This document shows positions 1,751-47,373 of a DNA stretch of 64,000 nucleotides, in pieces; position 1 is the stretch's first letter; the number at the start of each line of letters is the position of its first letter. The notes beneath the pieces are model-generated. The model was not told the DNA's origin and did not search any database. It worked only from the letters and a program-made list of their open reading frames with translations. The DNA is taken from the NCBI GenBank assembly GCA_002427605.1, contig DIRT01000037.1:20073-84072 (forward strand), given 5' to 3'. Both the position numbers and the translations under genes were made by a program. The DNA comes from Bacteroidales bacterium UBA5429. Its GTDB lineage: Bacteria > Bacteroidota > Bacteroidia > Bacteroidales > WCHB1-69.

Positions 1751-1797
1751 AGTAGAGACGTTGCACGCATAGAGACGTTGCATGCAACGTCTCTACT
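1751..1797 (+). terminator. GC-rich hairpin after floA, member of the GTAGAGAC...GTCTCTAC hairpin family, with a duplicated left arm
   Basis: Perfect palindrome agagacgttgca/tgcaacgtctct (1771-1794). A second copy of the left arm agtagagacgttgca (1751-1765) can pair with the same right arm (1783-1797). Confidence 0.5.
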
Positions 1798-1953: not shown

Positions 1954-2493
1954 TTAGCAAAAAGTCGTTCTCTTTACTTTAAATGACTTTATACTCTTTT
2001 TCCGTTCATCAATACTTTGTTGACTAAGTTGGTTAATGAAATAGGTCAGTTCTAATTCGTCAATATTTATTTGTCCTAAATACAGGTTGAGATTTTGTGC
2101 TTCTGCAAATTCATTAATTTTTGCAGCCCACTTGTATGGTTTTTTCTTAAAAACGAAAGTGTCGTCAGTTACTAATGAGATAAACTTTTGTCCGCTAATA
2201 TCGAGAAGATATGCTTCAATTATTTGCTCCCATTTTACTTCGTCTTGATTTGTAGTTCTGTCCCAAATGCCATTTTCTGTGATTACAATCTGTGGTCTTC
2301 TGTCGAAAGTATGAAAAAGTCCAACGGGTAAACCAAGTCCAAAAAAGCAAGTGCTTACCCAACCTATAATGTGTTCGGTGCTTCCATAAGGATTGTCTGT
2401 TATCATCCATATTCCAACCGCCACGAATGGTAAGCACATACAGATAGTTTTCAGTCCTTTTGTTGTTGTCTTATATAGTTTAATCTCTGTCAT
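1954..2493 (-). CDS. hypothetical membrane protein (two N-terminal TM helices plus a soluble PH-like tail)
   Basis: 179-aa ORF bounded on both sides by repeat-filled spacers. Function not recognised with confidence. Confidence 0.55.
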   Translation of the reverse strand: MTEIKLYKTTTKGLKTICMCLPFVAVGIWMITDNPYGSTEHIIGWVSTCFFGLGLPVGLFHTFDRRPQIVITENGIWDRTTNQDEVKWEQIIEAYLLDISGQKFISLVTDDTFVFKKKPYKWAAKINEFAEAQNLNLYLGQINIDELELTYFINQLSQQSIDERKKSIKSFKVKRTTFC

Positions 2494-2555
2494 TAACCAC
2501 TCCTATGCCGTTACAGTCGTTTTTAAATATTACCGCCAACCTATATTTTACGCAA

Positions 2556-2563
2556 CAAAAATA
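2556..2563 (-). promoter_or_regulatory. Bacteroidota -7 box TAnnTTTG (tatttttg on minus strand) for 1954-2493
   Basis: Motif match 63 nt upstream of the start codon. Confidence 0.35.
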
Positions 2564-2572
2564 TTAAAAAAA

Positions 2573-2614
2573 GTCGAAAGTCGAAAGTCGAAAGTCGAAA
2601 GTCGGAAGGCGAAA
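2573..2614. repeat. heptad tandem array, gtcgaaa x4 then gtcggaa, ggcgaaa
   Basis: Six consecutive 7-nt units read directly. Confidence 0.9.
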
Positions 2615-2623
2615 GTTTTTTCA

Positions 2624-2644
2624 ATTACGAATTACGAATTACGG
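2624..2644. repeat. heptad tandem array attacga x2 then attacgg
   Basis: Three consecutive 7-nt units. Confidence 0.85.
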
Positions 2645-2649
2645 AACCG

Positions 2650-2703
2650 CAAAATTTTAATTAAACGTGATTGTTGTAGGGACAGGTCGCGATCTGTCCT
2701 GGG
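2650..2703. repeat. repeat module copy 1 (caaaattttaattaaacgtgattgttg) plus degenerate hairpin gtagggacaggtcgcgatctgtcctggg
   Basis: About 85 percent identical over about 30 nt to 2824-2848. Stem ggacag/ctgtcc. Confidence 0.7.
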
Positions 2704-2731
2704 AATAATGAATAAAAATAACGTCACGGTC

Positions 2732-2757
2732 GTAGAGACAGGGCATGCCCTATCTCC
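2732..2757. repeat. degenerate hairpin gtagagacagggcatgccctatctcc
   Basis: Same GTAGAGAC..GCATGC.. design as 1771-1794, with two mismatches in the right arm. Confidence 0.6.
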
Positions 2758-2823
2758 ATGATATTATTATGCAAGACCATTAAAATGGCATTAAATAATT
2801 GATAATCAAGAAATTGCAAATCA

Positions 2824-2870
2824 CAAAATTTGATTAAACGCGATTGTAGGGGCAGGGCTTGTCCCTGCCC
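2824..2870. repeat. repeat module copy 2 (caaaatttgattaaacgcgattg) plus perfect hairpin gggcaggg-cttgt-ccctgccc
   Basis: 8-bp all-GC-rich stem at 2849-2869; flank matches 2650-2676. Confidence 0.75.
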
Positions 2871-2876
2871 TTTGCC

Positions 2877-2939
2877 GAGTGGGGTGATAAAATAACAGAA
2901 AAGTAAAATATGATCTGCCCCCCTATTTTTTTTATTTCA
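2877..2939 (+). repeat. two-box intergenic element, copy C (GAGTGGGG, 30-nt A-rich spacer, CTGCCCCCC, T-run, ATTTCA)
   Basis: Box 1 at 2877-2884, box 2 at 2915-2923, box-to-box offset 38 nt. Confidence 0.8.
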
Positions 2940-2999
2940 AAATAGTATATATGATTAAATTTCAATGGGTTATATTAAAAATAATCCAATGTCAAAATA

Positions 3000-3027
3000 T
3001 CGAAATCCGAAATCCGACATCCGAAAT
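3000..3027. repeat. heptad array tcgaaat ccgaaat ccgacat ccgaaat
   Basis: CG dinucleotide recurs at 3001, 3008, 3015 and 3022. Confidence 0.85.
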
Positions 3028-3122
3028 CAAATTGCAGTACTTCATCTTTACTGATTATTATTATGTAAAACCGGATTCAAATTATAAACGTACCTTTTTT
3101 GTTTTTATTGAAAAAAAAATTA

Positions 3123-3130
3123 TACTTTTG
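3123..3130 (+). promoter_or_regulatory. -7 box TAnnTTTG (tacttttg) for yebC
   Basis: 32 nt upstream of ATG 3162. Confidence 0.55.
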
Positions 3131-3161
3131 CAAATAGAAAAAAACATTATCAATATTTACT

Positions 3162-3872
3162 ATGGGAAGAGCATTTGAATTTAGAAAAGAAAGAAAGTTC
3201 AAACGTTGGGGAAACATGGCAAAGGTTTTCACACGTTTAGGTAGAGAAATTACAATGGCAGCTAAAGCGGGCGGTCCTGACCCGGCGTCAAATGCTAAGC
3301 TGAGATTGTTGATGCAAAATGCACGTTCTGAAAATATGCCTAAAGATAATGTCGAAAGAGCGATTAAAAGAGCATTTGAAAAGGATACTTCAGACTATAA
3401 AGAACATGTATATGAGGGTTATGCACCCTACGGTGTGGCGATATTAATTGAAGCTGCAACAGATAATAACCAGAGAACAGTTGCCAATGTGAGAAGTTAT
3501 TTCAATAAACATAACGGCTCTCTGGGAACGCACGGGATGCTTGATTTTATCTTTGATCGTAAATGTAGATTTACGGTTGCGATGAAAGAAAATCTGGATC
3601 TGGAAGAACTGGAGTTGGAATTGATCGACTTTGAGGTTGAAGAGGTTTTTGAAGATGATGGAGATATTCATATCTATGCTGATTTTCAAAGCTTTGGACC
3701 AATTCAAAAGTATTTGGAAGAGAATGAGTTTGATATCAAAGAGTTTAAATTTGAAAGAATTCCGAACGATTTTAAAGAGGTAGATGAAGAACAAAGAGCA
3801 GAAATTGAAAAATTATTGGAAAAGATTGAAGAGGATGACGATGTAACACAAGTATTTCATAATATGGCCTAA
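3162..3872 (+). CDS. yebC: YebC/PmpR-family transcriptional regulator
   Basis: MGRAFEFRKERKFKRWGNMAKVFTRLGREITMAAKAGGPDPASNAKLR is the family N-terminus; 236 aa. Confidence 0.93.
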   Translation: MGRAFEFRKERKFKRWGNMAKVFTRLGREITMAAKAGGPDPASNAKLRLLMQNARSENMPKDNVERAIKRAFEKDTSDYKEHVYEGYAPYGVAILIEAATDNNQRTVANVRSYFNKHNGSLGTHGMLDFIFDRKCRFTVAMKENLDLEELELELIDFEVEEVFEDDGDIHIYADFQSFGPIQKYLEENEFDIKEFKFERIPNDFKEVDEEQRAEIEKLLEKIEEDDDVTQVFHNMA

Positions 3873-3906
3873 ATAATTAATCACTAACTTTTAATTTTAA
3901 TTGACC

Positions 3907-4518
3907 ATGTATTACTACAAGTTTCGAGTTACTTATGATCACGTTGAGGATTTTGTGAGAGATATTGAGATCCTCGCTTCAGACCATTTTGAATCCTTCC
4001 ATCATATCCTGTTTGAATCAATAGGATTGGTAGGAAATGAGTTGGCATCCTTCTATATTTGTGATGCTAAGTGGAATAAGAAAAAGGAGATTACACTGAT
4101 TGATATGCATGATGATCAGGATGTGGAAGAGCCTGAATATGAGGATGATGACGATTATTCGGCTAAATCTAACATCCCGAAGTTTATCATGAAAGATTCG
4201 CTGTTGAAAGATTTTATTACCGATCCACATCAGCAGATTATTTATGAATATGATTTTCTGGATCCCTATATATTTTACATTGAATTGTTGAAGGCAGCAC
4301 CTGCTACAGAGGGTGTTGAGTACCCAAGATGTACCAAGAAGGAAAAAGAGATGCAACTGAAAATCGTACATTCAAAATTATTGGAAGATTTAGCAGGATT
4401 GGAGATTCATGAAAAGGGAGATCTTGACGATCTTGATGATCTTGATGATTTGGATAACAGTTTTGACGATGATGATTTCGCCGATTTTGAACAGTTTGAC
4501 CCTTCAGACAAGTTCTAA
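3907..4518 (+). CDS. hypothetical acidic protein with DLDDLDDLDDLD tail (possibly PRiA4b-ORF3-like fold)
   Basis: ATG at 3907 (the track start 3901 is TTG); C-terminal third is Asp/Glu rich. Confidence 0.65.
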   Translation: MYYYKFRVTYDHVEDFVRDIEILASDHFESFHHILFESIGLVGNELASFYICDAKWNKKKEITLIDMHDDQDVEEPEYEDDDDYSAKSNIPKFIMKDSLLKDFITDPHQQIIYEYDFLDPYIFYIELLKAAPATEGVEYPRCTKKEKEMQLKIVHSKLLEDLAGLEIHEKGDLDDLDDLDDLDNSFDDDDFADFEQFDPSDKF

Positions 4519-5374
4519 TCAACCTACTCTTTGTGTTATTACCGGTCCTACAGCAGTAGGAAAAACCGACTTTGCTATCGAACTGGCGCTCCACTTTGAT
4601 ACGGTGATTATTTCTGCCGACTCCAGACAGTTTTATCGGGAAATGTCTATTGGGACGGCGTTTCCTACGGAGGAGCAACAGAGTAAAGTAAAGCATTACT
4701 TCATAGGTCATAAATCGATTCAGGATTATTACAGTGTTTCAAAATATGAACAGGATGTTCTGGAACTGTTGCCCTCTCTGTTTGAGCAACATCCGGTGGT
4801 AGTGATGACCGGCGGCAGCGGACTCTATATCGATGCGGTTTGCTACGGGATTGATCTTTTACCGGATCCCGATCCGGTGGTAAGAGAAGAGTTGACCCGG
4901 GTTTTTGAAAAGGAGGGAGTGGAAGGATTGAGACAACGGATTAAAAAATTGGATCCGCATTATTATCAAACCAGTGATATTGCCAACCATAAAAGATTGT
5001 TGCGTGCCCTGGAGGTGACAATCCAAACAGGAATTCCCTATTCCCAGATGATTACCGGAAAAGCAAAGGAGAGAAATTTTAATATCCAAAAGTTTTACCT
5101 CAACAGACCCAGAGCAGAACTTTTTGAAAGGATTAATTTCAGAGTGGATCAGATGATGCAGGCAGGATTACTGGATGAGGTTCAGCAACTTTATTCTTAC
5201 AAAGATTTAAATGCCTTGAATACTGTAGGTTACAAAGAGCTTTTCACCTATTTAGATGGAAAATATTCTCTGGAACAGGCAGTTGAAAAGATTAGGGTTA
5301 ACACCCGGCGTTATGCCAAACGACAATTAACCTGGTTTAAAAGAGATTCTTCTTATCATGAAGTAAAAATATAA
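4469..5374 (+). CDS. miaA: tRNA dimethylallyltransferase
   Basis: P-loop ITGPTAVGKT, family-typical RQFYREMSIGTA and TRRYAKRQLTWFKR. Start uncertain (ATG 4469/4472 or TTG 4496); the track start 4409 is inside the previous gene. Confidence 0.9.
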   Translation: MMISPILNSLTLQTSSNQPTLCVITGPTAVGKTDFAIELALHFDTVIISADSRQFYREMSIGTAFPTEEQQSKVKHYFIGHKSIQDYYSVSKYEQDVLELLPSLFEQHPVVVMTGGSGLYIDAVCYGIDLLPDPDPVVREELTRVFEKEGVEGLRQRIKKLDPHYYQTSDIANHKRLLRALEVTIQTGIPYSQMITGKAKERNFNIQKFYLNRPRAELFERINFRVDQMMQAGLLDEVQQLYSYKDLNALNTVGYKELFTYLDGKYSLEQAVEKIRVNTRRYAKRQLTWFKRDSSYHEVKI

Positions 5375-5379
5375 GTAGT

Positions 5380-6099
5380 ATGACAGATTGGTTATCCAGA
5401 ACGGAACTTTTGTTGGGAACGGAAAATTTACTTAAGCTGCAATCGAAACATGTGTTGGTAGTAGGTTTGGGTGGAGTGGGAGCTTATGCAGCCGAACAGA
5501 TTTGTCGTGCCGGAGTGGGAGAGATGACCATCGTGGATGCGGATGTGATTGAAGAGACCAATATCAATCGCCAATTGATTGCGCTTCACAATGCTGTTGG
5601 ACAGGCTAAAACCGATCTTTTAGCTGAGCGGTTACTCCAGATTAATCCCAACCTGAAACTCCACAAATTACACGAATTTATTCGCGATGACCGGGCGGTG
5701 ACGCTTTTGGAAGAGCATCAGTACGATTACGTGGTAGATGCTATCGATTCTTTGTCGCCCAAGGTGTTTTTTATATACCATACCTTACAAAAAGGGCTGC
5801 CGTTGATCTCCGCCATGGGTGCGGGTGGCAAGATGGATCCTGCACAAATTCGGGTTGCACCCATCGAGAAAACCTCTCACTGTAAATTAGCTCATTTTGT
5901 ACGAAAACGGCTTCATCGCATGGGAGTTCGTTCCGGATTCAAAGCGGTTTATTCTCCCGAACCGGTTCCCGACCATGCCATTCAGATCGACTCCAATCCC
6001 GAGCAAAATAAACTCTCCGTAGTGGGCACTATCTCCTACATGCCCCCTTTGTTTGGCTGTTTTATGGCAGCAGAAGTAATCCGCGATCTTATCAAGTAA
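5380..6099 (+). CDS. tcdA: tRNA threonylcarbamoyladenosine dehydratase (ThiF/E1-like)
   Basis: VVGLGGVGAYAAEQICRAGVGEMTIVDADVIEETNINRQ nucleotide-binding motif; 239 aa. Confidence 0.88.
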   Translation: MTDWLSRTELLLGTENLLKLQSKHVLVVGLGGVGAYAAEQICRAGVGEMTIVDADVIEETNINRQLIALHNAVGQAKTDLLAERLLQINPNLKLHKLHEFIRDDRAVTLLEEHQYDYVVDAIDSLSPKVFFIYHTLQKGLPLISAMGAGGKMDPAQIRVAPIEKTSHCKLAHFVRKRLHRMGVRSGFKAVYSPEPVPDHAIQIDSNPEQNKLSVVGTISYMPPLFGCFMAAEVIRDLIK

Positions 6100-6214
6100 G
6101 AAGTAAGAAGTAATTTCATATTTCGCATTTCGGATTTCGTAATTGAATTCCGCCTTCCGCCTTCCGATTTCCGCCTTCATTATAATTCTAATTTCTACCT
6201 TCTAAATTCTAAAT
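6096..6214. repeat. 17-heptad degenerate tandem array in perfect 7-nt register
   Basis: gtaagaa gtaagaa gtaattt catattt cgcattt cggattt cgtaatt gaattcc gccttcc gccttcc gatttcc gccttca ttataat tctaatt tctacct tctaaat tctaaat. Starts at the tcdA stop codon. Confidence 0.9.
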
Positions 6215-6220
6215 TTTTTA

Positions 6221-6228
6221 TATCTTTG
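6221..6228 (+). promoter_or_regulatory. -7 box tatctttg for the DUF2851 gene
   Basis: 21 nt upstream of ATG 6249. Confidence 0.55.
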
Positions 6229-6248
6229 CGGAACTAAATATTACTGCC

Positions 6249-7592
6249 ATGATCTCTGAAGCACTCCTCCACTACGCATGGAAACACTCGATCTATTCCC
6301 ATTTCGATTTCAAAACCAGCGATGGTCAGCCATTGCAAATTATTCATCCCGGATTGCCACACCAGGATGCCGGACCCGATTTTAAGCAAGCTGTGATTAA
6401 AATCGGAGATCTGCTGTGGACCGGCAACGTGGAGATTCACGTTAAAAGTTCCGATTGGTTGAAGCACCGACATCATGAGGATGCAAAGTATGAAACCGTC
6501 ATTTTGCATGTTGTTTACGAGCATGATTATGAAATAAATTATAAAGGGGGGAGTCCAATTCCCACTTTTGAGTTAAAGAATCACCTCTCCTCTCAACTGA
6601 TAGAGCGCTATACTCAACTCATGCTCTCCACTTCGCCTCTCCCTTGTGCGCAGTTCGTTCAAAACCTCAAAGCCCATCAGCCCGACTACTATCGCTTGAT
6701 ATTTCACTCATTGTACGCGCGTCTCATTCTGGAAAGACTGGAACAGCGGAGTAAGGATATCTTTGCGACCTTAAATCAGGTATCCGGCGATTGGAATGAA
6801 ACTCTGTTCAGACTGCTGACCGCCAACTTCGGGTTTAAAACAAACCGCGATGCTTTTGTACTTTTAGCGCAATCGATTCCCTACAAAGTAATCCAGAAAC
6901 ATGCTACCAATCAGCTGCAAATAGAAGCTATTCTGTTCGGACAAGCCGGTTTACTGGAAGAACCGTTGGATGATCCTTATTATGTAACATTGCAAGAGGA
7001 GTATGAATATTTGCGGCGGAAAGAGAGATTGCATCCTATTCATTCCAAGAATTGGAACTTATTGCGATTGAGACCTCAAAACTTTCCTTGTATGCGTTTG
7101 GCACAGCTGAGTGCTATTCTGTATCGATATCCGAACCTGTTTACTAAGATTGAACAGCATACCGAAATAGCTCAATTTGCAGAAATTTTCTCCATACCTG
7201 CCAACTCTTACTGGGAAACTCACTATCAATTTGGAAAAGAGAGCAAAAAACATGCCACAACGATTGGAGAAAATACGTTTCAACTTCTGATTATCAACAC
7301 GATTATTCCGGCGTTGTACGTTTATGGAATCTTCTCGGGAAAAGAAGAATTAAGTGACAGAGCAATAGATCTGCTTGCGCAAATGGAAGCGGAGGATAAT
7401 CGTATTATCCGGTTTTATCGCGAGAATCACTTCGAAATCAGCAATGGGATGGAATCGCAGGCGGTATTGGAACTCTCTAAGAGATATTGTCAGCACAAGC
7501 AGTGCCTCTCTTGTAGTTTGGGCTCCAAAATTGTTTCTGAGGATGATATTTTCTACGCCGGCACACCACAGAGGAAACGACCCACTGAATAG
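6249..7592 (+). CDS. DUF2851-family protein
   Basis: N-terminus EALLHYAWKH...GLPHQDAGPDFKQAVIKIGDLLWTGNVEIHVKSSDWLKHRHH matches my memory of DUF2851. Confidence 0.75.
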   Translation: MISEALLHYAWKHSIYSHFDFKTSDGQPLQIIHPGLPHQDAGPDFKQAVIKIGDLLWTGNVEIHVKSSDWLKHRHHEDAKYETVILHVVYEHDYEINYKGGSPIPTFELKNHLSSQLIERYTQLMLSTSPLPCAQFVQNLKAHQPDYYRLIFHSLYARLILERLEQRSKDIFATLNQVSGDWNETLFRLLTANFGFKTNRDAFVLLAQSIPYKVIQKHATNQLQIEAILFGQAGLLEEPLDDPYYVTLQEEYEYLRRKERLHPIHSKNWNLLRLRPQNFPCMRLAQLSAILYRYPNLFTKIEQHTEIAQFAEIFSIPANSYWETHYQFGKESKKHATTIGENTFQLLIINTIIPALYVYGIFSGKEELSDRAIDLLAQMEAEDNRIIRFYRENHFEISNGMESQAVLELSKRYCQHKQCLSCSLGSKIVSEDDIFYAGTPQRKRPTE

Positions 7593-7698
7593 GTTCGTTG
7601 TTTGCGATAGTCAGCAGTGTAATACCCTTCCTTCCCCCCTTTTTTTATTAAATCAAAATAAAAAGAATAAAAATTAGGTTATTAATCATTTATTTTTG

Positions 7699-11848: not shown

Positions 11849-11869
11849 TAAGCGAACACTATATAACTA

Positions 11870-12255
11870 GGGGTCGTTTGGTTTTGACAGCTAGTTTGTA
11901 GATTTGTAAGCACGTCGGAGGTTGTGAGACGGTTCCGTTAAAAACTAACTCTCGTAGCCAATAAATGGCAACTCTTATGCAATCGCTGCTTAATTGTGGC
12001 GGTTCCGAAGCCTAAACCAGGTTTAGAGCATCGGATGTTTCCCCGGAAGCATTGCCAATCTGCGTCCGGATCGAAGCATCGTAAAAGATTGGATAGCAAG
12101 TACCGGCTTCGCGGTATGCGCGAAATAACAGAAGATAAGTGCAGCATAGTGTGCCTAAGCATGGTGTTGTGCCGACAAGTTTCTCTTAGGATAAACGTGT
12201 AGAAAGCATCTTTGCAGCAAGTTTGGACGCGGGTTCGACTCCCGCCGACTCCACA
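11870..12255 (+). ncRNA. ssrA: tmRNA
   Basis: 5' ggggtcg pairs with 3' cgactcc. T-arm gggttcgactcccgcc. Tag ORF ggc aac tct tat gca atc gct gct taa (11967-11993) gives GNSYAIAA*. Confidence 0.93.
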
Positions 12256-12256
12256 C

Positions 12257-13915: not shown

Positions 13916-13976
13916 TGAAATAAAAAAAAAGGGGGGCAGGAAATTCATCGTACAAATAAAAAGTTTACCCCCACTC
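13916..13976 (-). repeat. two-box intergenic element, copy A
   Basis: Minus-strand reading gagtggggg...ctgcccccc tttttttttatttca; boxes at 13969-13976 and 13931-13939, offset 37 nt. Confidence 0.8.
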
Positions 13977-14086: not shown

Positions 14087-17000
14087 ATGACCTTAAAAGA
14101 ACTCAAACCGCGAAAAGCACTTAATAAAGCTTTCTTAAAAGTAAAACCGAATAGGAGTGAAATTGAGCTTTTTAAGACCCATCTCATCACATTGCTCGAT
14201 AGAATTAACGATTCAGAAAGCGAGGAGTTTCATAAGAACCTGATTTCAGACTTTCTTAAAGATACATACTACAAACAAAATCATTTCATCAATACCAAAG
14301 GTCGCAATGACCTGGTGATTCATAATGGACCCAATGCAAATTCAACAGTAGGAGTAATCATTGAAGCAAAGAAACCAACCAATAAAACTGAAATGGTTAC
14401 TACTCAAAATCTGAATGTTAAAGCTTTTCAGGAATTGGTATTGTACTACTTACGTGAAAGAATTACAGATAAAAACTTGGAAGTCAAGCATTTGATAGTT
14501 ACTAATGTCAACGAATGGTTCATTTTTGACGCTACAACCTTTGATAGGCTTTTTGCTCAAAATAAGAAGTTTGTTCAGCAATTCACTGATTTTGAAGCCG
14601 GACGATTAGCGGATACAACTACCGATTTTTTCTATAAGCAAATTGCAGAACCCTTTATTGAGAGTATCACTTCTGAAATTGAATTTGCATACTTTAATTT
14701 TCAGGATTATCAAAAAGTTATACGTAATCCTGAAAAAACTGACGACAATTCACTGATAGCTCTATTTAAACTGCTTTCACCCGAACATCTTTTAAAACTT
14801 CCTTTTGCCAACGACAGTAATACTCTCGACAAAAAATTTTACGGCGAATTGCTACATATTATTGGACTGACTGAAACTAAAAAGGGAGGTAAAAAACTGA
14901 TTGAACGGAATAAAGTAGGTGAGAGACACACAGGAACCATTCTTGAAGATACGATTATTCAATTGGATAGCTTAGACAAACTGAGCAGACTTGAAAAGCC
15001 AAGTCTATTCGGAAAAACAGAGGAGGAACGACTTTTCAATGTTGCATTGGAGCTTTCTATCACCTGGATGAACCGTATTTTGTTCCTAAAATTACTAGAA
15101 GCTCAGCTGATTACCTACAATAAAGGCGACCAATCTCACTCCTTTATCAATTTCGATAAAATCAAAAGTTTTGATGATCTCAATACGCTCTTTTTTCAAG
15201 TTTTAGCTCGAAAACATGAAAGTCGAAACCAAGATGTCCAAAAAGCTTTTGAGAAAGTTCCCTATCTCAACTCCTCACTCTTTGAGCCAACAGATTTGGA
15301 ACATTCAATGTTCTTGATCAGCAATTTAAGTGATGATAAATCGATACCTATTTTTTCGCAAACTGTTCTGAAAGATGAACATGGAAAGAAAATAACAGGG
15401 AATTTAAATACACTCGAATATCTATTTTCATTTTTGGATGCTTATGATTTTGGTGCAGAAGGTGGGGAGGAAATTCAAGAAGAGAACAAAACATTGATTA
15501 ATGCCTCAGTTCTCGGTTTAATTTTTGAGAAAATAAATGGCTATAAAGATGGCTCCTTTTTTACTCCGGGTTTCATTACAATGTATATGTGTCGTGAAAC
15601 AATTCGTAAAGCAGTTGTACAGAAGTTTAGCCAGGAGTTTCCTGATTATAAGATTAATAGGATTGAGGATATCTACGATTTGATACCACAAAAAATATCC
15701 AGAAAAAAAGCCAATAAGGTTATTAATTCCTTAAAAATATGCGATCCTGCGGTAGGTTCAGGACATTTTTTAGTGAGTGCACTGAATGAACTCATTGCAA
15801 TAAAAAATGATTTAAAAATTTTGGAAGATCGCGAAGGAAAATCGCTACATCGTTATGAAGTAGAAGTGGTTAATGATGAGTTGATTGTAACCGATGAAGA
15901 GGGGGAACTCTTTGAATATAATCCCAATAATAAAGAGAGTCAACGCGTACAGGAAACGCTGTTCCACGTAAAACAAACCATCATTGAAAATTGTCTTTTT
16001 GGGGTAGATATTAATCCCAATTCAGTCAAAATTTGCCGGTTACGCCTTTGGATAGAGTTATTAAAAAACGCGTACTACAAAAACAAGATTGAGCTGGAAA
16101 CTCTGCCCAATATTGACATTAATATCAAATGTGGAAACTCCTTAGTAAGTCGATTTGGCATAGATGCTGATTTAAAACAAGCTTTAAAGAGAAGCAAATG
16201 GACAATAAATAGTTATCGTTTAGCCGTATCTACTTACCGAAATGCTGAAAATAAGGAGCAGAAAAGGGAGATGGAACGACTGATTGATGAGATTAAGAAT
16301 AATTTTAGGGTAGAGATCACTAACAATGATCCTAAAAAAACACGATTATCAAAATTAGCTTATGAACTGTATAACCGTTTTACGGGGAGTATGCTTTTTG
16401 AACCCGAAATACCTTACGGGAGTAATGTGGAAAAAAGACGAAAGGATGAACAGTGTAAAATAGAGGATGAAATAACTAAGCTACAGAAGGAGATTGATGA
16501 AATTGAAAGTAATAAGATTTATGAAAATGCTTTTGAGTGGCGTTTCGAATTTCCTGAAGTATTGAATAATGATGGCGATTTTGAAGGTTTTGATGTAGTG
16601 ATTGGTAATCCGCCGTATGTTGATTTAAAGGAATTAGATAATGATCTGGTTAAGTTTATTTTTACTCATTATAATACATCTTCGAATCGTGTAAACTTAT
16701 ACTCCACTTTTGTAGAAAAAGCTTATTCGCTCCTAAAACCGGAAGGTTATTTCTCTTTTATTATTCCGAATTCTATTTTAATGGGTTCGTCATATCAAAA
16801 TCTAAGAAACCTTATAAAGAAAGAGATTTATGGTATAGTAAAGCTTCCGGAGAAAGTTTTTGAGGATGCAATAGTGGAAACGGTAATTATTGAGTTTAAG
16901 AAAAATAGCAAATTTGAAACTTGTCAAACATTGATTTATAAAAAAGATGAGAAAGTAATTCAACTTGACCCAACCCTAAAACAGATGGTTTCTAAGAAAT

Positions 17001-17749
17001 CTTGGGAAATTTATAATGAACCAAAATTCAATATTTACATTTCTGATAAAATAATAAAACCTCTGATGAAAATTCACGGTAAGGGGAAGAAATTAGGAGA
17101 AATAGCTGATTTTACTCTTGGTATTACACCATATGACAAGTACAAAGGACATTCAAAAGAACTTATTGAAAACAAAGAGTTCCATTCAGATGTAAAATTA
17201 TCAGATGAATATAAGCCACTGATCAAGGGTGAAAATATAGTTCATTATTACGTTGATGAAACAGTAAATAGCTACATCAAATATGGGTCTTGGTTGGGTG
17301 CACCAAGAGAGGAAAGGTTTTTTACCGAACCAAGAGTGATTGTCCGACAAATAGTTTCAGGTAAACCCCCGAAGATTTATGCGGGTTACACGGATAAGCC
17401 ACTATATTTTACTCAAATTGGTTTTTCTATAATTCCCAAATCATATATTACTGTTTTTGAATTAACAGCTTTACTTAATAGTAAGTTGATGAATTTTTAT
17501 CATAAGTATTTGTTTTTGGATATTGAAAAAGAACTGTTTCAAAAAATTTTGATTGAAAATTGTAAGCTTTTTCCCTGCAAATCTTTTAAAAATAGTGATT
17601 TAGTAAAGAAAATAGTTGAACAAATTATAGAAATAAAGTCAACTAATGCTGAAGCTGATACAACAGATCTTGAAAACCAAATAGATCAATTGGTTTATGA
17701 ATTGTATGGTTTGACAGAGGAAGAAATAAAAATTATAGAGAATAGCTAA
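14087..17749 (+). CDS. type IIG (MmeI/Eco57I-like) single-chain restriction endonuclease / N6-adenine methyltransferase
   Basis: N-terminal PD-ExK (D at 14309, E-A-K at 14363-14371), SAM motif DPAVGSGHFL (15743-15772), catalytic NPPY (16607-16618), TaqI-like C-terminal specificity region, 1220 aa. Confidence 0.85.
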   Translation: MTLKELKPRKALNKAFLKVKPNRSEIELFKTHLITLLDRINDSESEEFHKNLISDFLKDTYYKQNHFINTKGRNDLVIHNGPNANSTVGVIIEAKKPTNKTEMVTTQNLNVKAFQELVLYYLRERITDKNLEVKHLIVTNVNEWFIFDATTFDRLFAQNKKFVQQFTDFEAGRLADTTTDFFYKQIAEPFIESITSEIEFAYFNFQDYQKVIRNPEKTDDNSLIALFKLLSPEHLLKLPFANDSNTLDKKFYGELLHIIGLTETKKGGKKLIERNKVGERHTGTILEDTIIQLDSLDKLSRLEKPSLFGKTEEERLFNVALELSITWMNRILFLKLLEAQLITYNKGDQSHSFINFDKIKSFDDLNTLFFQVLARKHESRNQDVQKAFEKVPYLNSSLFEPTDLEHSMFLISNLSDDKSIPIFSQTVLKDEHGKKITGNLNTLEYLFSFLDAYDFGAEGGEEIQEENKTLINASVLGLIFEKINGYKDGSFFTPGFITMYMCRETIRKAVVQKFSQEFPDYKINRIEDIYDLIPQKISRKKANKVINSLKICDPAVGSGHFLVSALNELIAIKNDLKILEDREGKSLHRYEVEVVNDELIVTDEEGELFEYNPNNKESQRVQETLFHVKQTIIENCLFGVDINPNSVKICRLRLWIELLKNAYYKNKIELETLPNIDINIKCGNSLVSRFGIDADLKQALKRSKWTINSYRLAVSTYRNAENKEQKREMERLIDEIKNNFRVEITNNDPKKTRLSKLAYELYNRFTGSMLFEPEIPYGSNVEKRRKDEQCKIEDEITKLQKEIDEIESNKIYENAFEWRFEFPEVLNNDGDFEGFDVVIGNPPYVDLKELDNDLVKFIFTHYNTSSNRVNLYSTFVEKAYSLLKPEGYFSFIIPNSILMGSSYQNLRNLIKKEIYGIVKLPEKVFEDAIVETVIIEFKKNSKFETCQTLIYKKDEKVIQLDPTLKQMVSKKSWEIYNEPKFNIYISDKIIKPLMKIHGKGKKLGEIADFTLGITPYDKYKGHSKELIENKEFHSDVKLSDEYKPLIKGENIVHYYVDETVNSYIKYGSWLGAPREERFFTEPRVIVRQIVSGKPPKIYAGYTDKPLYFTQIGFSIIPKSYITVFELTALLNSKLMNFYHKYLFLDIEKELFQKILIENCKLFPCKSFKNSDLVKKIVEQIIEIKSTNAEADTTDLENQIDQLVYELYGLTEEEIKIIENS

Positions 17750-19227: not shown

Positions 19228-19626
19228 ATGAGTACAAAAAGAGTTTCCCCCCAGTGGATTAATAAATTAGAAGCTAACGAAATTTTTGTTTTTGGAAGTA
19301 ATTTAGAGGGAATGCATGGCGGTGGTGCAGCTGCAGTAGCCAGGAAGTGGGGAGCGATTTGGGGACAAGGGGTTGGGCTACAAGGACAAACCTACGCTAT
19401 TCCGACCATGCAAGGTGGAGTTGAAACGATTAAACCCTATGTGGATGAGTTTTTAGCTTTTGCAAAATCACATCCGGAGCTCAAGTTTTTGGTAACGGAA
19501 ATAGGCTGTGGTATTGCAGGTTTTACAGTACAAGAGATTGCCCCTTTGTTCAAAGCAGCACTGGATGAAAATATTGAAAATGTTTATCTACCTCAGCGCT
19601 TTTACGAGGTGTTGAGTCCGATGTAA
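19228..19626 (+). CDS. small conserved protein, A1S_2505-like phage non-structural protein family (SLOG/LOG-like fold suspected)
   Basis: NEIFVFGSNLEGMHGGGAAAVA...GQTYAIPT pattern recalled from that family; 132 aa. Confidence 0.55.
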   Translation: MSTKRVSPQWINKLEANEIFVFGSNLEGMHGGGAAAVARKWGAIWGQGVGLQGQTYAIPTMQGGVETIKPYVDEFLAFAKSHPELKFLVTEIGCGIAGFTVQEIAPLFKAALDENIENVYLPQRFYEVLSPM

Positions 19627-19687
19627 TAAACGATAGTATCCTGTGCAAACAGAATAATTGGTGCTTTCCTCAAAGCGTGTAATGTTA

Positions 19688-19746
19688 GAGTGGGGAAAGG
19701 GGACAACAAAAGAGTAATTCCTATGCTGCCCCCCTTTTATTTAAAA
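19688..19746 (+). repeat. two-box intergenic element, copy D
   Basis: gagtgggg at 19688-19695 and ctgcccccc at 19726-19734, offset 38 nt, then ttttatttaaaa. Confidence 0.75.
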
Positions 19747-19778
19747 TACCAAATAAGAAATAAGAAATTAGAAATATG
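19744..19778. repeat. heptad array aaatacc aaataag aaataag aaattag aaatatg (plus ctaaatt x2 at 19824-19837)
   Basis: Five units in register, abutting element copy D. Confidence 0.75.
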
Positions 19779-19855
19779 AAGTAAATCTATTACTAAGTGT
19801 AAATAGCTGATAGTTAGATAGTACTAAATTCTAAATTTGCTATCCGGTTGAGGTA

Positions 19856-22312
19856 TTAGATGAAAAGATTGATTCTTGCATCGTCGGCGCGTTCCATATA
19901 GGTGGCAACACCGCCCACTGTAACGACATCAAGAAGTTCCTCTTTTCTTACGCCCATCATATCCATTGACATTTGACAAGCGATAAACTCAACTCCATTT
20001 TGAAGTGCTTGTTCACGTAAAGATTCTAATGAATCGATTCCTTTTTCCTTCATTAAGTGGCGCATTAATCGATCACCCAAGCCCCACATGGAAAGTTTGG
20101 AAAGTTTGAGTTTGAGCGAGTGAGAAGGTAACATAAAGGAGAACATTTTGTCAAAGAATCCTTTTTTAAGTTTGGGCTTGTTTACCTTTTTAATTACATT
20201 CAATCCCCAGAAAGTAAAGAATATGGTTACTTTATCGCCTGAAGCGGCTGCTCCATTAGCCAATACCATGGTAGCCAATGCTTTATCCAAGTCATCACTA
20301 AACATGATGAAAGTTCTGTTTTTCTCTCCGGTGCTCAATGTGGCGCCTTGAGTTGCTCTCTTGATTCCTTTTTCAACAATAGCTTCATAGATTCCTTTGT
20401 CAGAGGAGGTAGAGATTAAAAGGTTCTGTGTAGAGTTGCACCAGGCTTCAACATCTCTGATAAATCCGGGATCAGTTGAGGTTACTGTAATTTGATCACC
20501 ACTGTTGGCATCATCAACTGCTTTGCGTAACTTTAGGATTGGTCCGGGACATTGTAATCCGGTTGCATCAATCGTGATCATATTTTTTACTTCCCGCATG
20601 AAGCTTACCTGCGCGTCATCAGCTAATTTGGGTCCCTTGAATAGAGGGAGTTCTTGATTGACAATTGGAGCTACTGCTACAGAGTAGGTGGTGTATCCCC
20701 CTGATAGATTTTTTACGTCATTGAAGTGATTTGCTTTCAAAATGTTGGAAGCCAGGTAACCTCTCAGACCAATGGCACAAAAGATAACAATCGGTTTATC
20801 TTTTGGAATTTCATTCATTCTGGAGCGTAACTCATCAACAGGAATATTGATAGATCCGGGAATAGTACCCATGGCAACTTCATCCACAGTTCTTACATCA
20901 ATCAAGGTTACTTTTTCCAAATCGAGTTCCTTAACCTCTCTCCAGGAGACAATATCCATCTTTTTACTGAGGATATTGTTAGCAACATATCCGGCGATAG
21001 TGATAGGATCTTTAGCAGAAGAGAATGGAGGAGCATAACAATGTTCAACAGCCATTAAATCGTAGATTGTTTTTCCCATTTTAATGAGTAGGGAGATCTG
21101 GTCGATTCTTTTATCTACACCGTCATATCCAACTCCCTGAGCTCCCAAAATGCGTCCTGTTTCGGGTTCAAAAGTGATTTTTAAGGAGATACGTGTTGAT
21201 CCGGGATAGTATCCGGCATGTGAACCGGAGTGTGTCCAGGAACTGATGTAGGGTATATCCAGTGATTTTAGCTTTTTAGCAGCTAATCCGGTAGAAGCAA
21301 CGGTGATGTCGAAAATCTTAGCGATAGAAGTACCAATTGCTCCCTCATAGGGTTCCTTGTTGCCGAAAACCATATTGTCAGCTACCAGTCTTCCCTGACG
21401 ATTGGCGGGGTTAGCCAGGTAATTCATCCAGGGTTTTCCTGTGATAGGGTGTGGAAACTCAATGGCATCACCCACGGCATAGATATCTTTTACAGAGGTT
21501 TCCAAGTATTCATTAACCCAGATTCCTCTGGCTTCTCCAATTTTAATTCCTGAATCTTGTAAAAAGCCGATCTCGGGTCTAACTCCAATAGAAAGAATCA
21601 CGACATCGGTTTCTATCATTTTTCCACTTTCGAGATAAACGAGAATGGAGTCCTCATTTTTTTGAAATTTGGTAACAGACTCGCCGAGGTGGAGTTGCAC
21701 ACCTTTTTCAGTAAGATGACGGTGAACAAGTTGAGCCATCGAGAAATCGATAGGAGCCATCACCTGATCTAACTTCTCAGCAATATGTACTTGAGCACCC
21801 AGGTGGTGTAAGTTTTCCGCCATCTCCAATCCAATAAATCCGGCACCCACAATCAGTGCTCTTTTGATCACTTTTTCACTGACATACTTTTTAATTCTGT
21901 CGGTATCCGGAATATTTCTTAGTGAGAAAACTCCATCCAGGTCGATTCCTTCAATGTTTGGTCTGATGGGAGCGGCTCCGGGAGAGAGCAAAAGTTTGTC
22001 GTAAGACTCTTGATAAATAGCTCCATTTTCATTTTTAACATGAACTATCTTTTTCTCAGGATCGATTCGTACTACCTCATTTTGAACACGGACATCGGCA
22101 TTAAAGCGAGTTCCAAAAGTGGTAGGTGTTTGCAATAAAAGTCGGCTTCTTTCACTAATCACCCCTCCAATATAGTAAGGTAATCCACAATTAGCGTACG
22201 AAATGTAACTTCCTTTTTCTAAAATGATAATTTCTGCATTTTCATCATTTCTTCTGATTCTGGCTGCTGCGGTAGCGCCTCCGGCTACTCCGCCTACAAT
22301 GACATGTTTCAT
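19856..22312 (-). CDS. CoA-disulfide/persulfide-reductase-like flavoprotein fused to rhodanese, TusA-like and DsrE/DrsE-like domains
   Basis: GVAGGATAAAR FAD motif, redox Cys in SYANCGLPYY, rhodanese Cys in VIFCAIGLRG, TusA motif GLQCPGP, C-terminal DsrE-like FIACQMSMDMMG. Confidence 0.8.
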   Translation of the reverse strand: MKHVIVGGVAGGATAAARIRRNDENAEIIILEKGSYISYANCGLPYYIGGVISERSRLLLQTPTTFGTRFNADVRVQNEVVRIDPEKKIVHVKNENGAIYQESYDKLLLSPGAAPIRPNIEGIDLDGVFSLRNIPDTDRIKKYVSEKVIKRALIVGAGFIGLEMAENLHHLGAQVHIAEKLDQVMAPIDFSMAQLVHRHLTEKGVQLHLGESVTKFQKNEDSILVYLESGKMIETDVVILSIGVRPEIGFLQDSGIKIGEARGIWVNEYLETSVKDIYAVGDAIEFPHPITGKPWMNYLANPANRQGRLVADNMVFGNKEPYEGAIGTSIAKIFDITVASTGLAAKKLKSLDIPYISSWTHSGSHAGYYPGSTRISLKITFEPETGRILGAQGVGYDGVDKRIDQISLLIKMGKTIYDLMAVEHCYAPPFSSAKDPITIAGYVANNILSKKMDIVSWREVKELDLEKVTLIDVRTVDEVAMGTIPGSINIPVDELRSRMNEIPKDKPIVIFCAIGLRGYLASNILKANHFNDVKNLSGGYTTYSVAVAPIVNQELPLFKGPKLADDAQVSFMREVKNMITIDATGLQCPGPILKLRKAVDDANSGDQITVTSTDPGFIRDVEAWCNSTQNLLISTSSDKGIYEAIVEKGIKRATQGATLSTGEKNRTFIMFSDDLDKALATMVLANGAAASGDKVTIFFTFWGLNVIKKVNKPKLKKGFFDKMFSFMLPSHSLKLKLSKLSMWGLGDRLMRHLMKEKGIDSLESLREQALQNGVEFIACQMSMDMMGVRKEELLDVVTVGGVATYMERADDARINLFI

Positions 22313-37642: not shown

Positions 37643-38798
37643 CCTTCCCCCCTTTTTTTATTAATAAAACAACATTACAACCTCCAAAACCGGAAGCAGT
37701 TTTCAAAGCAAACGGCTTATTACAGTTTCTTTCAGTTGTCACAATATCAAGAGGTTCTGAAATACCCAACTCCTGGAAACCCAAAGTTGGAAAGATGATT
37801 CCCTGTTCCAATGCATGTGCCGAAAGGATACTTTCGATTAATCCCGCAGCCCCCAACGTGTGCCCAAAATAGCCTTTGTAACTGTTGACAGGCAGATGCA
37901 GCAGATTGGCACGCCGGAACGCAATTGACTCCATCTCATCATTGTACAGCGTCGCGGTACCATGCGCATTGATAAATGAAATCTCCGACAGATCAACTGA
38001 TTTCAGCGTTTTTGTCAGTGCGCGATAGAGCCCTTCGCCGGTTCGGGAAGGACCGGAAATATGGTTGGCATCATTGGTGACGGCACCATTTTCGATCGAA
38101 ACAATCCCTTTTTTGGTTTTTGAAAGCACTACAGCAGCAGCTCCTTCGCCAATATTCAAACCGTTACGGTTGAGGTCGAAAGGACGACAAGGGGTGGGGG
38201 AGAGCGCTTTGAAAGATTGAAAACCGGCCACGACAAAAGGGGTAACCAGATCAGCACCTACCACAATCAGATGTTCGTAGGGTTGATTTTCTAGTATGGA
38301 CTTGCCCAGTACTAGCGCCTGAGTTCCTGAAATACAGGCATTAGAGAGAATAATAGGTTGATTACTGTTTTGAAAATGTTGAGTGACCAATTCCGCACTT
38401 TCCCAGATGTGAACGCGTTCAGCATCAAAATTGTGTTTCAAGTTTGAATCCAACAACTCAATATTCCCTTTTGTGGTAGAAAAAAGGAATAAAATATTCT
38501 CTTGTTTGGGGTCAATTTGGGCAGTGTCAACTACTTTTTGGATGACAAATATCATCAGTTGTTCGAAAAAAGTAAATTGTTCTCTGGAGGGCATATCATT
38601 AGTTTGATCCCAGATTTGGTTCCATCGAACTCTGTCAATCTGCGACACCATAGCAGTGGGTTCACTGAGTGTAATCCCTTTTACCTCCCGCATCCCTAAT
38701 TTACCGGCTCTCATCTGATCCAAAACTTCTTGAGTGTTGAACCCCAAGCTGTTAACAATGCAGTCTGCAACAATGTTTACCCCCTGATTGTGTCCCAT
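37635..38798 (-). CDS. beta-ketoacyl-ACP synthase
   Basis: SNACISGTQAL, NAHGTAT, GHTLGAAG. Confidence 0.88.
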   Translation of the reverse strand: MGHNQGVNIVADCIVNSLGFNTQEVLDQMRAGKLGMREVKGITLSEPTAMVSQIDRVRWNQIWDQTNDMPSREQFTFFEQLMIFVIQKVVDTAQIDPKQENILFLFSTTKGNIELLDSNLKHNFDAERVHIWESAELVTQHFQNSNQPIILSNACISGTQALVLGKSILENQPYEHLIVVGADLVTPFVVAGFQSFKALSPTPCRPFDLNRNGLNIGEGAAAVVLSKTKKGIVSIENGAVTNDANHISGPSRTGEGLYRALTKTLKSVDLSEISFINAHGTATLYNDEMESIAFRRANLLHLPVNSYKGYFGHTLGAAGLIESILSAHALEQGIIFPTLGFQELGISEPLDIVTTERNCNKPFALKTASGFGGCNVVLLIKKGGKDA

Positions 38799-46550: not shown

Positions 46551-47210
46551 TTATTTTATGCGTATTACAATATCATGAAGATGTCTCGTTCCTGCCGGAG
46601 ATGTTGCTCTAATTCCTGTGAATAGAATAATTGTTCGGGGAGTTGCATCATTAATTCTGGCTTTTAATTCCTCTGAAAAAGTACCACCCTGAATGGTCAT
46701 AGGTACTTCTTCCTTCCCATCAACAAAAAATATTACCTGATAGGATTGTACACTCCACTCTAAATCATAGGCAAAATCTTGACCCATAGTAACTTCAATA
46801 AATGGTTTTTCCGCTAATTCTTCTTTACTGACACTACCCTCAGTGAACATGCCACTCACTTTTGCAACCGGATTCGGTACACGTTTAACGCGGAACTCTG
46901 AGGCTCCCAGTGTTATATCTCTTTCATCTCACGTGGTTTTAACATGAACAGTTACAGTTTTTCCTATCAAAGTTTCCGGAATAGTGATGTTAAAAGTTCC
47001 GGGACCTGTTTTTGTATATGACCCACCACCTTTTAATTCAATTGAAAGTTCTTCAGGTGCAATAGGAGCATTTACTGTAATAGGGTTGGATAAACCGGCG
47101 TAGAAAACATTCATTCTATCGGCAGAAACAGTAACCCAAGACTTAGTGGTTTGTGCAGTGAGGGAAAATGATAGCATGAACAACGATACTACAATGACTA
47201 ATTTTTTCAT
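46551..47210 (-). pseudogene. secreted GldM-C-terminal-domain-like protein interrupted by one in-frame TGA (46929-46931)
   Basis: ORFs 46929-47210 and 46551-46859 are in the same frame, and the 69 nt between them is open (..VHVKTT*DERDITLGASEFRVKRVPNPVAKVSGMF..). MNVFYAGLSNPITV and FRVKRVPNPVAKV are GldM C-terminal motifs. Confidence 0.65.
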
Positions 47211-47309: not shown

Positions 47310-47373
47310 TGAAATAAAAAAAAAGGGGGGCAGGATGGATATACCTCTTTTATTTATACTAATCACCCCACTC
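47310..47373 (-). repeat. two-box intergenic element, copy B
   Basis: Minus-strand gagtggggtgat...cctgcccccc tttttttttatttca; boxes at 47366-47373 and 47325-47333, offset 40 nt. Confidence 0.8.

Follow-up and report, generated by a model that had tools for sequence, protein, structure and literature searches.

A non-palindromic two-box intergenic repeat of one uncultured Bacteroidales lineage, possibly a module of a REP/BIME-like mosaic system

What is a bipartite intergenic sequence doing at four places in a single 64-kb stretch of a Bacteroidales genome: does it signal to the genes beside it, does it encode a small RNA, or does it belong to a repeat family of the DNA itself? An earlier note on this stretch (64,000 nucleotides, hereafter the window) had listed four copies, and their coordinates and strands hold: copy A at 2877..2939 (+), copy B at 19688..19746 (+), copy C at 13916..13976 (-) and copy D at 47310..47373 (-). 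The core of copy A consists of box 1 (GAGTGGGG), a 30-nt spacer, box 2 (CTGCCCCCC), a T-run and ATTTCA. The pattern GAGTGGGG-N{25,40}-CTGCCCCCC matches the window exactly four times against 0.00 expected from 100 dinucleotide-preserving shuffles, and the narrower GAGTGGGG-N29-32-CTGCCCCCC likewise yields four matches and none expected. Indeed, GAGTGGGG occurs only four times in the window, each time as part of a two-box copy. The distances from the start of box 1 to the start of box 2 (38, 38, 37 and 40 nt in copies A to D) were also reproduced.

Other details of the first description required revision. The unit is larger than the ~60 nt originally given, as the family profile, built from 158 aligned copies, has 193 positions (193 nt). 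In the window, this profile aligns to 2797-2968 at copy A, to 13983-13883 at copy C, to 47377-47280 at copy D and to 19664-19785 at copy B, where it takes in the upstream module and an AAATAAG heptamer tail. The motif GAGTGGGGTGAT, once assigned to the copies at 19688 and 13976, is actually shared by those at 2877 and 47373. Copy B does not precede a same-strand gene; it lies between convergent neighbours (19228-19626, +; 19856-22312, -). Copies A and C are both found between divergent genes, the latter between a thioredoxin-like gene and a type IIG restriction-modification gene. Copy D follows the compact canonical terminator hairpin of a tRNA-Ser gene by ~50 nt and lies 100 nt upstream of a small GldM-domain gene. 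Two supposed relatives lacking box 1 fared differently. The one near 7631 is a true partial member (7611..7676, +; nhmmer E=1e-7), which starts 19 nt past the stop of a DUF2851 gene and retains only the 3' half, namely CCTTCCCCCC, the T-run and the ATTAAATCAAAATAAA tail; the match at 37644, located within coding sequence where two genes meet, falls short of significance (E about 0.1-0.3). A possible fifth, degenerate copy at 6527-6585 was rejected as a chance match because it is enclosed by the DUF2851 coding region, whose Pfam match runs from residue 4.

The genes flanking the window copies are functionally unrelated: yebC, a thioredoxin-like lipoprotein, the type IIG enzyme, a CoA-disulfide-reductase-like enzyme and GldM-domain ORFs. 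Two of these neighbours can be described further. The type IIG restriction-modification enzyme adjoining copy C (1220 aa; 14087-17749, +) has an Eco57I/MmeI methylase domain, a TaqI_C specificity domain and N-terminal DUF7149 and DUF7814 domains. At 46551-47210 (-), two adjacent small ORFs (93 and 99 aa) match only GldM domains three and four (PF21602, PF12080), and full-length gldM is absent there.

Across the 158 copies, the family unit has a fixed order: a (CGTAATT)n array, an upstream module of ~45 nt, box 1, an A-rich spacer of 30±1 nt, box 2, TTTTATTT and a purine-rich tail. On the 5' side, the consensus reads (CGTAATT)n, then GATCAC.CAT.T.C.AAAAGG..TAATATTCCA, then GAGTGGGG; on the 3' side of the spacer, it reads CTGCCCCC(C), then tTTTaTTT, then one of several tails. 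These tails begin with ATTTTTATTTCAAAAA, AAAATACCAAATAAGAAAT or GAAGGTAGAAATAAGAAGG, or belong to a long sub-type ending in (CCGAAAT)n. Copy A carries the long sub-type, …TCAATGGGTTATATTAAA…(CCGAAAT)n, which is common to 14 copies and which its heptamer array at 3001..3028 (+) closes. A further sub-family contains a GC-rich block of ~45 nt directly after box 1 (L003 ~7915, L015 ~4342, L025 ~3953, L092 1781-1883, L098 1092-1191 and others). This block, CCACCCC-GCCCTTCGGGC-ACCCCTCC…GGAGGGG, includes a cUUCGg hairpin, and its 3' arm restores a sequence resembling box 1, GAGGAGGGG, which pairs with CCCCTCC. As first described, the element lacks terminal inverted repeats and an ORF; direct inspection of the copies revealed no consistent ATG or reading frame for a small ORF on either strand.

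The contrast between boxes and spacer, already suspected from four copies, persists in the 158-copy alignment. The spacer is tightly fixed in length (30 nt in 112 of 158 copies, and 29-31 nt in 96%), whereas its sequence is largely free: across the wider family there is a weak A-rich consensus over the 5' two thirds, and the last third is unconstrained. Within the related metagenome-assembled genome (MAG) discussed below, paralogous spacers have a mean pairwise identity of 0.59 versus 0.54 after shuffling, in agreement with the initial statement that spacers do not align. Spacer sub-families nevertheless exist, as 12 of 46 MAG copies have a neighbour at >=90% identity. Among copies caught only as by-catch in fetched loci, the boxes are nearly always intact; one CCGCCCCC variant and the GC-rich insert sub-family were noted, and no decaying copy was seen.

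How widely, then, is the element distributed? The earlier note had held that an absence of further copies beyond chance would count against the element; a genome-wide pattern check instead returned dozens to hundreds. A scan covering one genome per GTDB species gave 39 loci, 34 of which lie in one MAG, 'Bacteroidota bacterium USPA_maxbin.052'. This MAG is 90-96% identical to the window and carries orthologues of copies B (locus L010) and C (L029). One GTDB locus was rejected as a GC-rich archaeal chance match. The other four (L012, L022, L036 and L037) have the element with the same characteristic flanking modules and are assigned to MAGs that bear the labels Clostridium, Salinivirgaceae, Pseudomonadota and Bacillota. 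L037 matches parts of two Bacteroidota MAG loci (L004 and L024) at 97-98.5% identity, and L036 is a ~90%-identical orthologue of L039. These four contigs are probably relatives or mis-binned, and since mis-binning is likely, the element could serve as a lineage marker. A scan of metagenomes gave at least 120 loci, with digesters and activated sludge as the source of nearly all of them, and at least 158 distinct AT-flanked copies. No copies occurred in viral contigs, and plasmids gave no meaningful match to the two-box element.

The nearest other homologues of an enzyme neighbouring the element share 70-73% amino acid identity with it and come from Bacteroidales where they are named. In these relatives, no copy lies within ±10 kb of the syntenic gene; hence, the family is confined to roughly one genus, an uncultured Bacteroidales lineage from anaerobic digesters. 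In the literature, both box sequences together were found in no bacterial paper. Short-read contigs from other runs begin exactly at 'gccGAGTGGGG', i.e., at box 1, which implies that assemblers break at the two-box element. A different upstream neighbour at locus L047 was set aside as a probable assembly chimera because the join falls at a heptamer array 86 nt from the contig end. As a separate observation, L029 of USPA_maxbin.052 contains a segment of ~5.1 kb (2473-7561) that is missing from the window and whose junction falls where the tmRNA gene starts. The junction corresponds to window positions 11860-11888, at the 5' end of that gene (11870-12256), with 29 nt present on both junction sides, and the segment looks like an integrated island.

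The placement of the copies bears directly on function. Almost all are intergenic (169 of 171). The 119 copies with calls for both neighbouring genes fall into 39 tandem-sense, 38 convergent, 26 tandem-antisense and 16 divergent cases. For the upstream gene, co-orientation with the element was recorded in 95 cases versus 44; gene 3' ends are favoured. Adjacent copies that have no ORF between them form 14 head-to-head pairs, one tandem pair and no tail-to-tail pair, while a random arrangement would give 1:2:1; tail-to-tail pairs were seen only twice overall. In head-to-head pairs, the box-1 ends lie 25-630 nt apart and the U-tracts point outward. It follows from this geometry that, in convergent regions, each copy is antisense to its adjacent gene. 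The ORFs that do occur between head-to-head pairs were considered as possible insertion sequences or transposases and proved to be unrelated small accessory genes. Similarly, a multi-copy gene found beside elements encodes T9SS-secreted Fn3 surface-protein paralogues, not a transposase.

Comparisons between loci indicate how the copies change. Modules swap among copies, with junctions at the two boxes. For example, copy A and the unrelated locus L027 have a composite of ~215 nt in common (two REP hairpins and the 5' edge of the element) while their spacers differ. In another instance, L072 and L165 represent one locus with 100% identical flanks in which the spacer has been replaced (47% identity). 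Other pairs of copies have an identical core and tail with different upstream sequence. In all ~9 diverged orthologous comparisons (flanks 88-97% identical), the copy is retained. Among ~90 flank-matched locus pairs, a sample biased to element-containing loci because loci were fetched for an exact match, no clean empty site was found, nor did a target-site duplication or presence/absence polymorphism come to light. Separately, L004 (1360-1522) and L037 (5430-6622) represent two alleles of one locus, one with an extra gene of ~310 codons followed by a different element copy and the other with only an element of another sub-family. This difference looks like a cassette-like replacement of 'gene + element'.

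The element shares its intergenic regions with other repeats. A GTAG-tagged REP hairpin, GTAGGGGCAGGGCTTGTCCCTGCCCT, at 2846..2871 (+) ends 5 nt before box 1 of copy A; the composite that recurs at L027 consists of this hairpin, the REP at 2732-2756 and the 5' part of the element. Hairpins of two GTAG families end 5-10 nt before box 1 in eight of the 158 copies. In the window, GTAG REP hairpins occur at 2676-2699, 2732-2756 and 2846-2871 (+) and at 1772-1796 (-); more are present in L092 (4480-4510, 5270-5410), and at least three stem families exist overall. L092 further contains a RAYT-like tyrosine transposase gene (4519-5163, -) flanked by GTAG REPs, three in tandem upstream and one downstream, with another REP inserted in frame within its coding sequence (…SCRDDVCKDAMLCVSK…). 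Its match to NF047646 (NCBIfam REP_Tyr_transpos) scores 48.6 bits, below the cutoff of 80. One two-box copy lies 45 nt beyond the 3' REP of this gene, the sole adjacency seen. An internally deleted RAYT-like copy is present in L038 (7088-7372, +) and L071, and the sampled DNA contains only two RAYT loci. In a 2013 survey (PMC3733652), the GTAG REPs listed came from other phyla, and Bacteroidetes had CGTC repeats only.

Heptamer arrays are the third component. The usual 5' neighbour of the element family-wide is (CGTAATT)n, and the mosaic intergenic region of copy A includes (AAAGTCG)n and (AATTACG)n arrays at 2570..2643. Intergenic regions packed with heptamers are found in the window at 2570-2643, 3001-3028, 6094-6215 and 19751-19784 and at many MAG and metagenome loci, with units such as AAAGTCG, AATTACG, CGAAATC, AAGTAAG, TTCCGCC, AATTCTA and AAATAAG. 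A relative at 70% identity (GCA_942493315.1) has other heptamers, GGTTTTG, ACGTTCG and AATGAAA (L178 8200-9950). Heptamer repeats of the TAACTGA type have been reported from Beggiatoaceae, Cyanobacteria and a few Bacteroidetes (PMC4679880). The 7-nt arrays in which the element is embedded, and with one of which its consensus begins, are comparable to these repeats and to cyanobacterial STRR (PMC4679880); the two-box core, however, is not tandem, and the arrays are a separate component made of many different units.

Taken together, these findings point to a repeat family of the DNA itself rather than to a regulatory signal tied to genes. The best explanation, held at about even confidence, is that the two-box element is a module of a new, lineage-specific, non-palindromic mosaic system of intergenic repeats resembling REP/BIME. 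This reading is based on the intergenic and 3'-end bias, the head-to-head dimers, the mosaic with REPs and other motifs and the restriction to one lineage. Like REP/BIME and REPIN-RAYT systems, the element is high-copy, intergenic and mostly located near gene 3' ends. Copies occur singly or as inverted doublets, with a strong preference for head-to-head over the rare head-to-tail arrangement (PMC3733652); the element is combined with other short motifs and persists vertically at orthologous loci. In REP families, too, head-to-head dimers are preferred and most copies are found downstream of coding regions (PMC3733652). The same genomes also contain a RAYT-like gene and genuine GTAG REPs.

The resemblance has limits. 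A REP is a stem-loop of 20-40 bp with a stem of 5-13 bp and a loop of 2-20 bp, whereas the two-box element has no compact palindrome: only 4-8 complementary positions surround the 30-nt spacer, with GGGG:CCCC plus GAG:CUU closing its 29-31 nt. Nor does it carry an unpaired GTAG or CGTC tag, its invariant 5' tetranucleotide being GAGT, and true GTAG REPs adjoin it as separate units. It is also 60-190 nt long and strongly asymmetric, with a T-run and purine-rich tail, and its doublet distance is variable (25-630 nt). What it does have in common with REPs is a high extragenic copy number (169 of 171, with 38 convergent versus 16 divergent regions) and head-to-head dimers (14:1:0). As for MITEs, there are no terminal inverted repeats, only an AAAAGG/CCTTTT complementarity of 6-7 nt that is absent from many copies. 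Lacking the compact palindrome and tag of REPs and the terminal inverted repeats of MITEs, the element is classed in neither family.

Two other comparisons are instructive. The pneumococcal BOX, enterobacterial ERIC and neisserial Correia elements are lineage-specific, modular repeats of ~100-200 nt present in dozens to hundreds of copies. They are often co-transcribed with their neighbours, sometimes with terminator or promoter side effects, and have long imperfect palindromes or terminal inverted repeats and predicted stable RNA folds. The two-box element is likewise lineage-specific, modular and multi-copy but has no terminal inverted repeats, no excess folding stability and no sequence similarity to them. 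By structural analogy only, it may also be likened to the attC sites of integrons, with short complementary boxes at both ends of a variable centre and, at some polymorphic loci, a position 3' of small accessory genes. Unlike attC sites, the copies are not arrayed but lie scattered over both strands between housekeeping genes, with no integrase and no R''/R' core consensus.

Several observations could instead point to transcription termination. The best-surviving rival, albeit a doubtful one, is an unusual intrinsic terminator or insulator cassette under host selection that stops transcription entering from the 5' side. In its stem, GAGUGGGG would pair with CCCCCCUU through G·U, A-U and G-C pairs, one U×C mismatch and four G-C pairs, closing a 30-nt A-rich loop followed by UUUUAUUU. 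As in Rho-independent terminators, the 5' arm is rich in G, the 3' arm is rich in C and the U-tract is conserved; GAG can extend the stem into this U-tract. Conservation of the G4/C6 complementarity and the T-run matches that of the boxes, which seem to be constrained in situ, and GGGG:CCCC pairing is part of the minimum free energy (MFE) fold in 103 of 158 copies. The prevalence of co-oriented upstream genes and the over-representation of convergent regions noted above would also be expected of a terminator.

Folding and placement weigh against such a cassette. As the earlier note had recognised, this is not a canonical terminator: the loop is ~30 nt instead of the usual 3-8 nt, and with the boxes fixed, real spacers confer no more stability than shuffled ones (mean z -0.14, p=0.2), predicted energies of -6 to -19 kcal/mol being equal to those with shuffled spacers. 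The RNAalifold consensus comprises the 4-bp GGGG:CCCC stem only, and the upstream AAAAGG:CCUUUU pairing appears in just 26 of 158 copies. The terminators this organism uses after its tmRNA and tRNA genes are compact hairpins. Among tandem regions, sense copies (39) only modestly outnumber antisense ones (26), and 16 copies lie between divergent genes, two of the window's four being so placed. Paired terminators would be expected tail-to-tail, the arrangement that was not seen without an intervening ORF, and not head-to-head. In 30 of 93 co-oriented cases, a compact canonical terminator already lies between the upstream gene and the element, as at copy D. Nor does a terminator account for the invariant T of GAGT or for the CTG. 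With orientation untied to genes, pairs facing the wrong way and prior terminators in place, the original suggestion of a terminator or insulator is weakened, and on the best reading any terminator activity is incidental. A general C-run/T-run terminator signal of the genome was also considered and rejected; the window has only nine C5+T3+ sites, several of them inside ORFs.

A protein might alternatively recognise the element as double-stranded DNA. This rival, which we regard as unlikely, proposes a bipartite site for a lineage-specific nucleoid-associated, insulator or recombination factor, with contacts at box 1 and at box 2/T-run ~38 bp apart across a bendable A-tract spacer. In the RIP/BIME-1 elements of E. 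coli, IHF sites lie between REPs, and the proposed arrangement may be likened to this placement of a protein site between repeat modules. Invariant boxes, a spacing of 29-31 nt in 96% of copies and a free spacer sequence are in line with such a site, as is an orientation independent of flanking genes, and the consistent head-to-head pairs could reflect cooperative binding. The protein partner, however, is purely hypothetical, and the boxes are not inverted copies of each other, so the element is not a simple dimer site. The pair distance also varies from 25 to 630 nt, and the dozens to hundreds of copies beside unrelated genes in one genus argue against a regulon.

The strongest fact still calling for an explanation is the invariance of the boxes beside near-saturated spacers, which keeps the three host-function alternatives (terminator, protein-binding site and small RNA family) alive. 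Intact boxes around such spacers resemble the result of per-locus purifying selection, a pattern no less compatible with a role for the host than with an element that is purely selfish. In addition, G4/C6 complementarity beside a conserved U-tract is a terminator signature that would be a coincidence under a model acting purely at the level of DNA. On this basis, the copies could be individually selected units used by the host, each with an 8-nt 5' handle, a 9-nt 3' handle with the U-tract and a free segment of 30±1 nt, which would constitute a library of small RNAs or a set of bipartite landing sites. We judge this quite improbable. If it were true, the copies would be either dispersed small RNAs loaded into an effector or landing sites for a lineage-specific chromosome-organising protein, and the head-to-head geometry would be part of the mechanism.

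Least probable of all, and very unlikely, is a family of stand-alone small RNA genes with a promoter in the upstream module and a transcript of ~55 nt from box 1 to the U-tract, its GGGG:CCCC ends enclosing a variable 30-nt loop: the element is intergenic and independent of its neighbours, its upstream module and U-tract are conserved, and a sigma-70-like TTGATC-N17-TATAAT is correctly placed in 30 of 158 copies (19%, versus 1.4% of shuffles), but 81% of copies lack even that match, the Bacteroidetes -7 motif TAnnTTTG occurs within 60 nt upstream of box 1 in only two of 158 copies although it is present upstream of the window's tRNA-Ser gene, in some copies the upstream module gives way to REP hairpins, two head-to-head copies have only 24-40 nt of upstream DNA in common, and spacers evolve about as fast as flanks, with outright replacement at L072/L165. 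The idea that the element is the 3' module of a small RNA further loses ground to its lack of excess stability and to searches in which Rfam covariance models matched nothing at gathering thresholds in the whole window and nothing at E<=10 overlapping the copies in L012, L013 and L019, and in which mutual information and complementarity across all column pairs detected no covariation in the spacer.

How might a REP/BIME-like repeat family keep its boxes intact? A trans-acting factor that recognises the boxes and the T-run may keep them invariant; candidates would be a host protein or an enzyme involved in copying or repair of the family. In solo copies, box 1 is predicted to pair with box 2, while in head-to-head doublets and in the GC-rich insert variant it would pair with an inverted box 1. 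As a side effect, the G4/C6 hairpin with its U-tract may end read-through transcripts or stabilise them, an activity that presumably does not set the position or orientation of the copies. For the spread and maintenance of the family, whose mechanism we infer, the RAYT-like gene is a candidate machinery, although its association is with the GTAG REPs and it adjoins an element only once.

For gene regulation in the window, the element is probably of little consequence. Its interest lies instead in the lineage. Bacteroidota are poorly represented among known carriers of REP/BIME repeats, and this lineage combines GTAG REPs and a RAYT-like gene with many heptamer arrays and a non-palindromic two-box element. 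From a practical perspective, short-read assemblies break at a defined position in the element, which may also lead to mis-binned contigs. Finally, with boxes that never decay around a spacer that does, the family offers a good natural system for distinguishing among selfish replication, gene conversion and use by the host.
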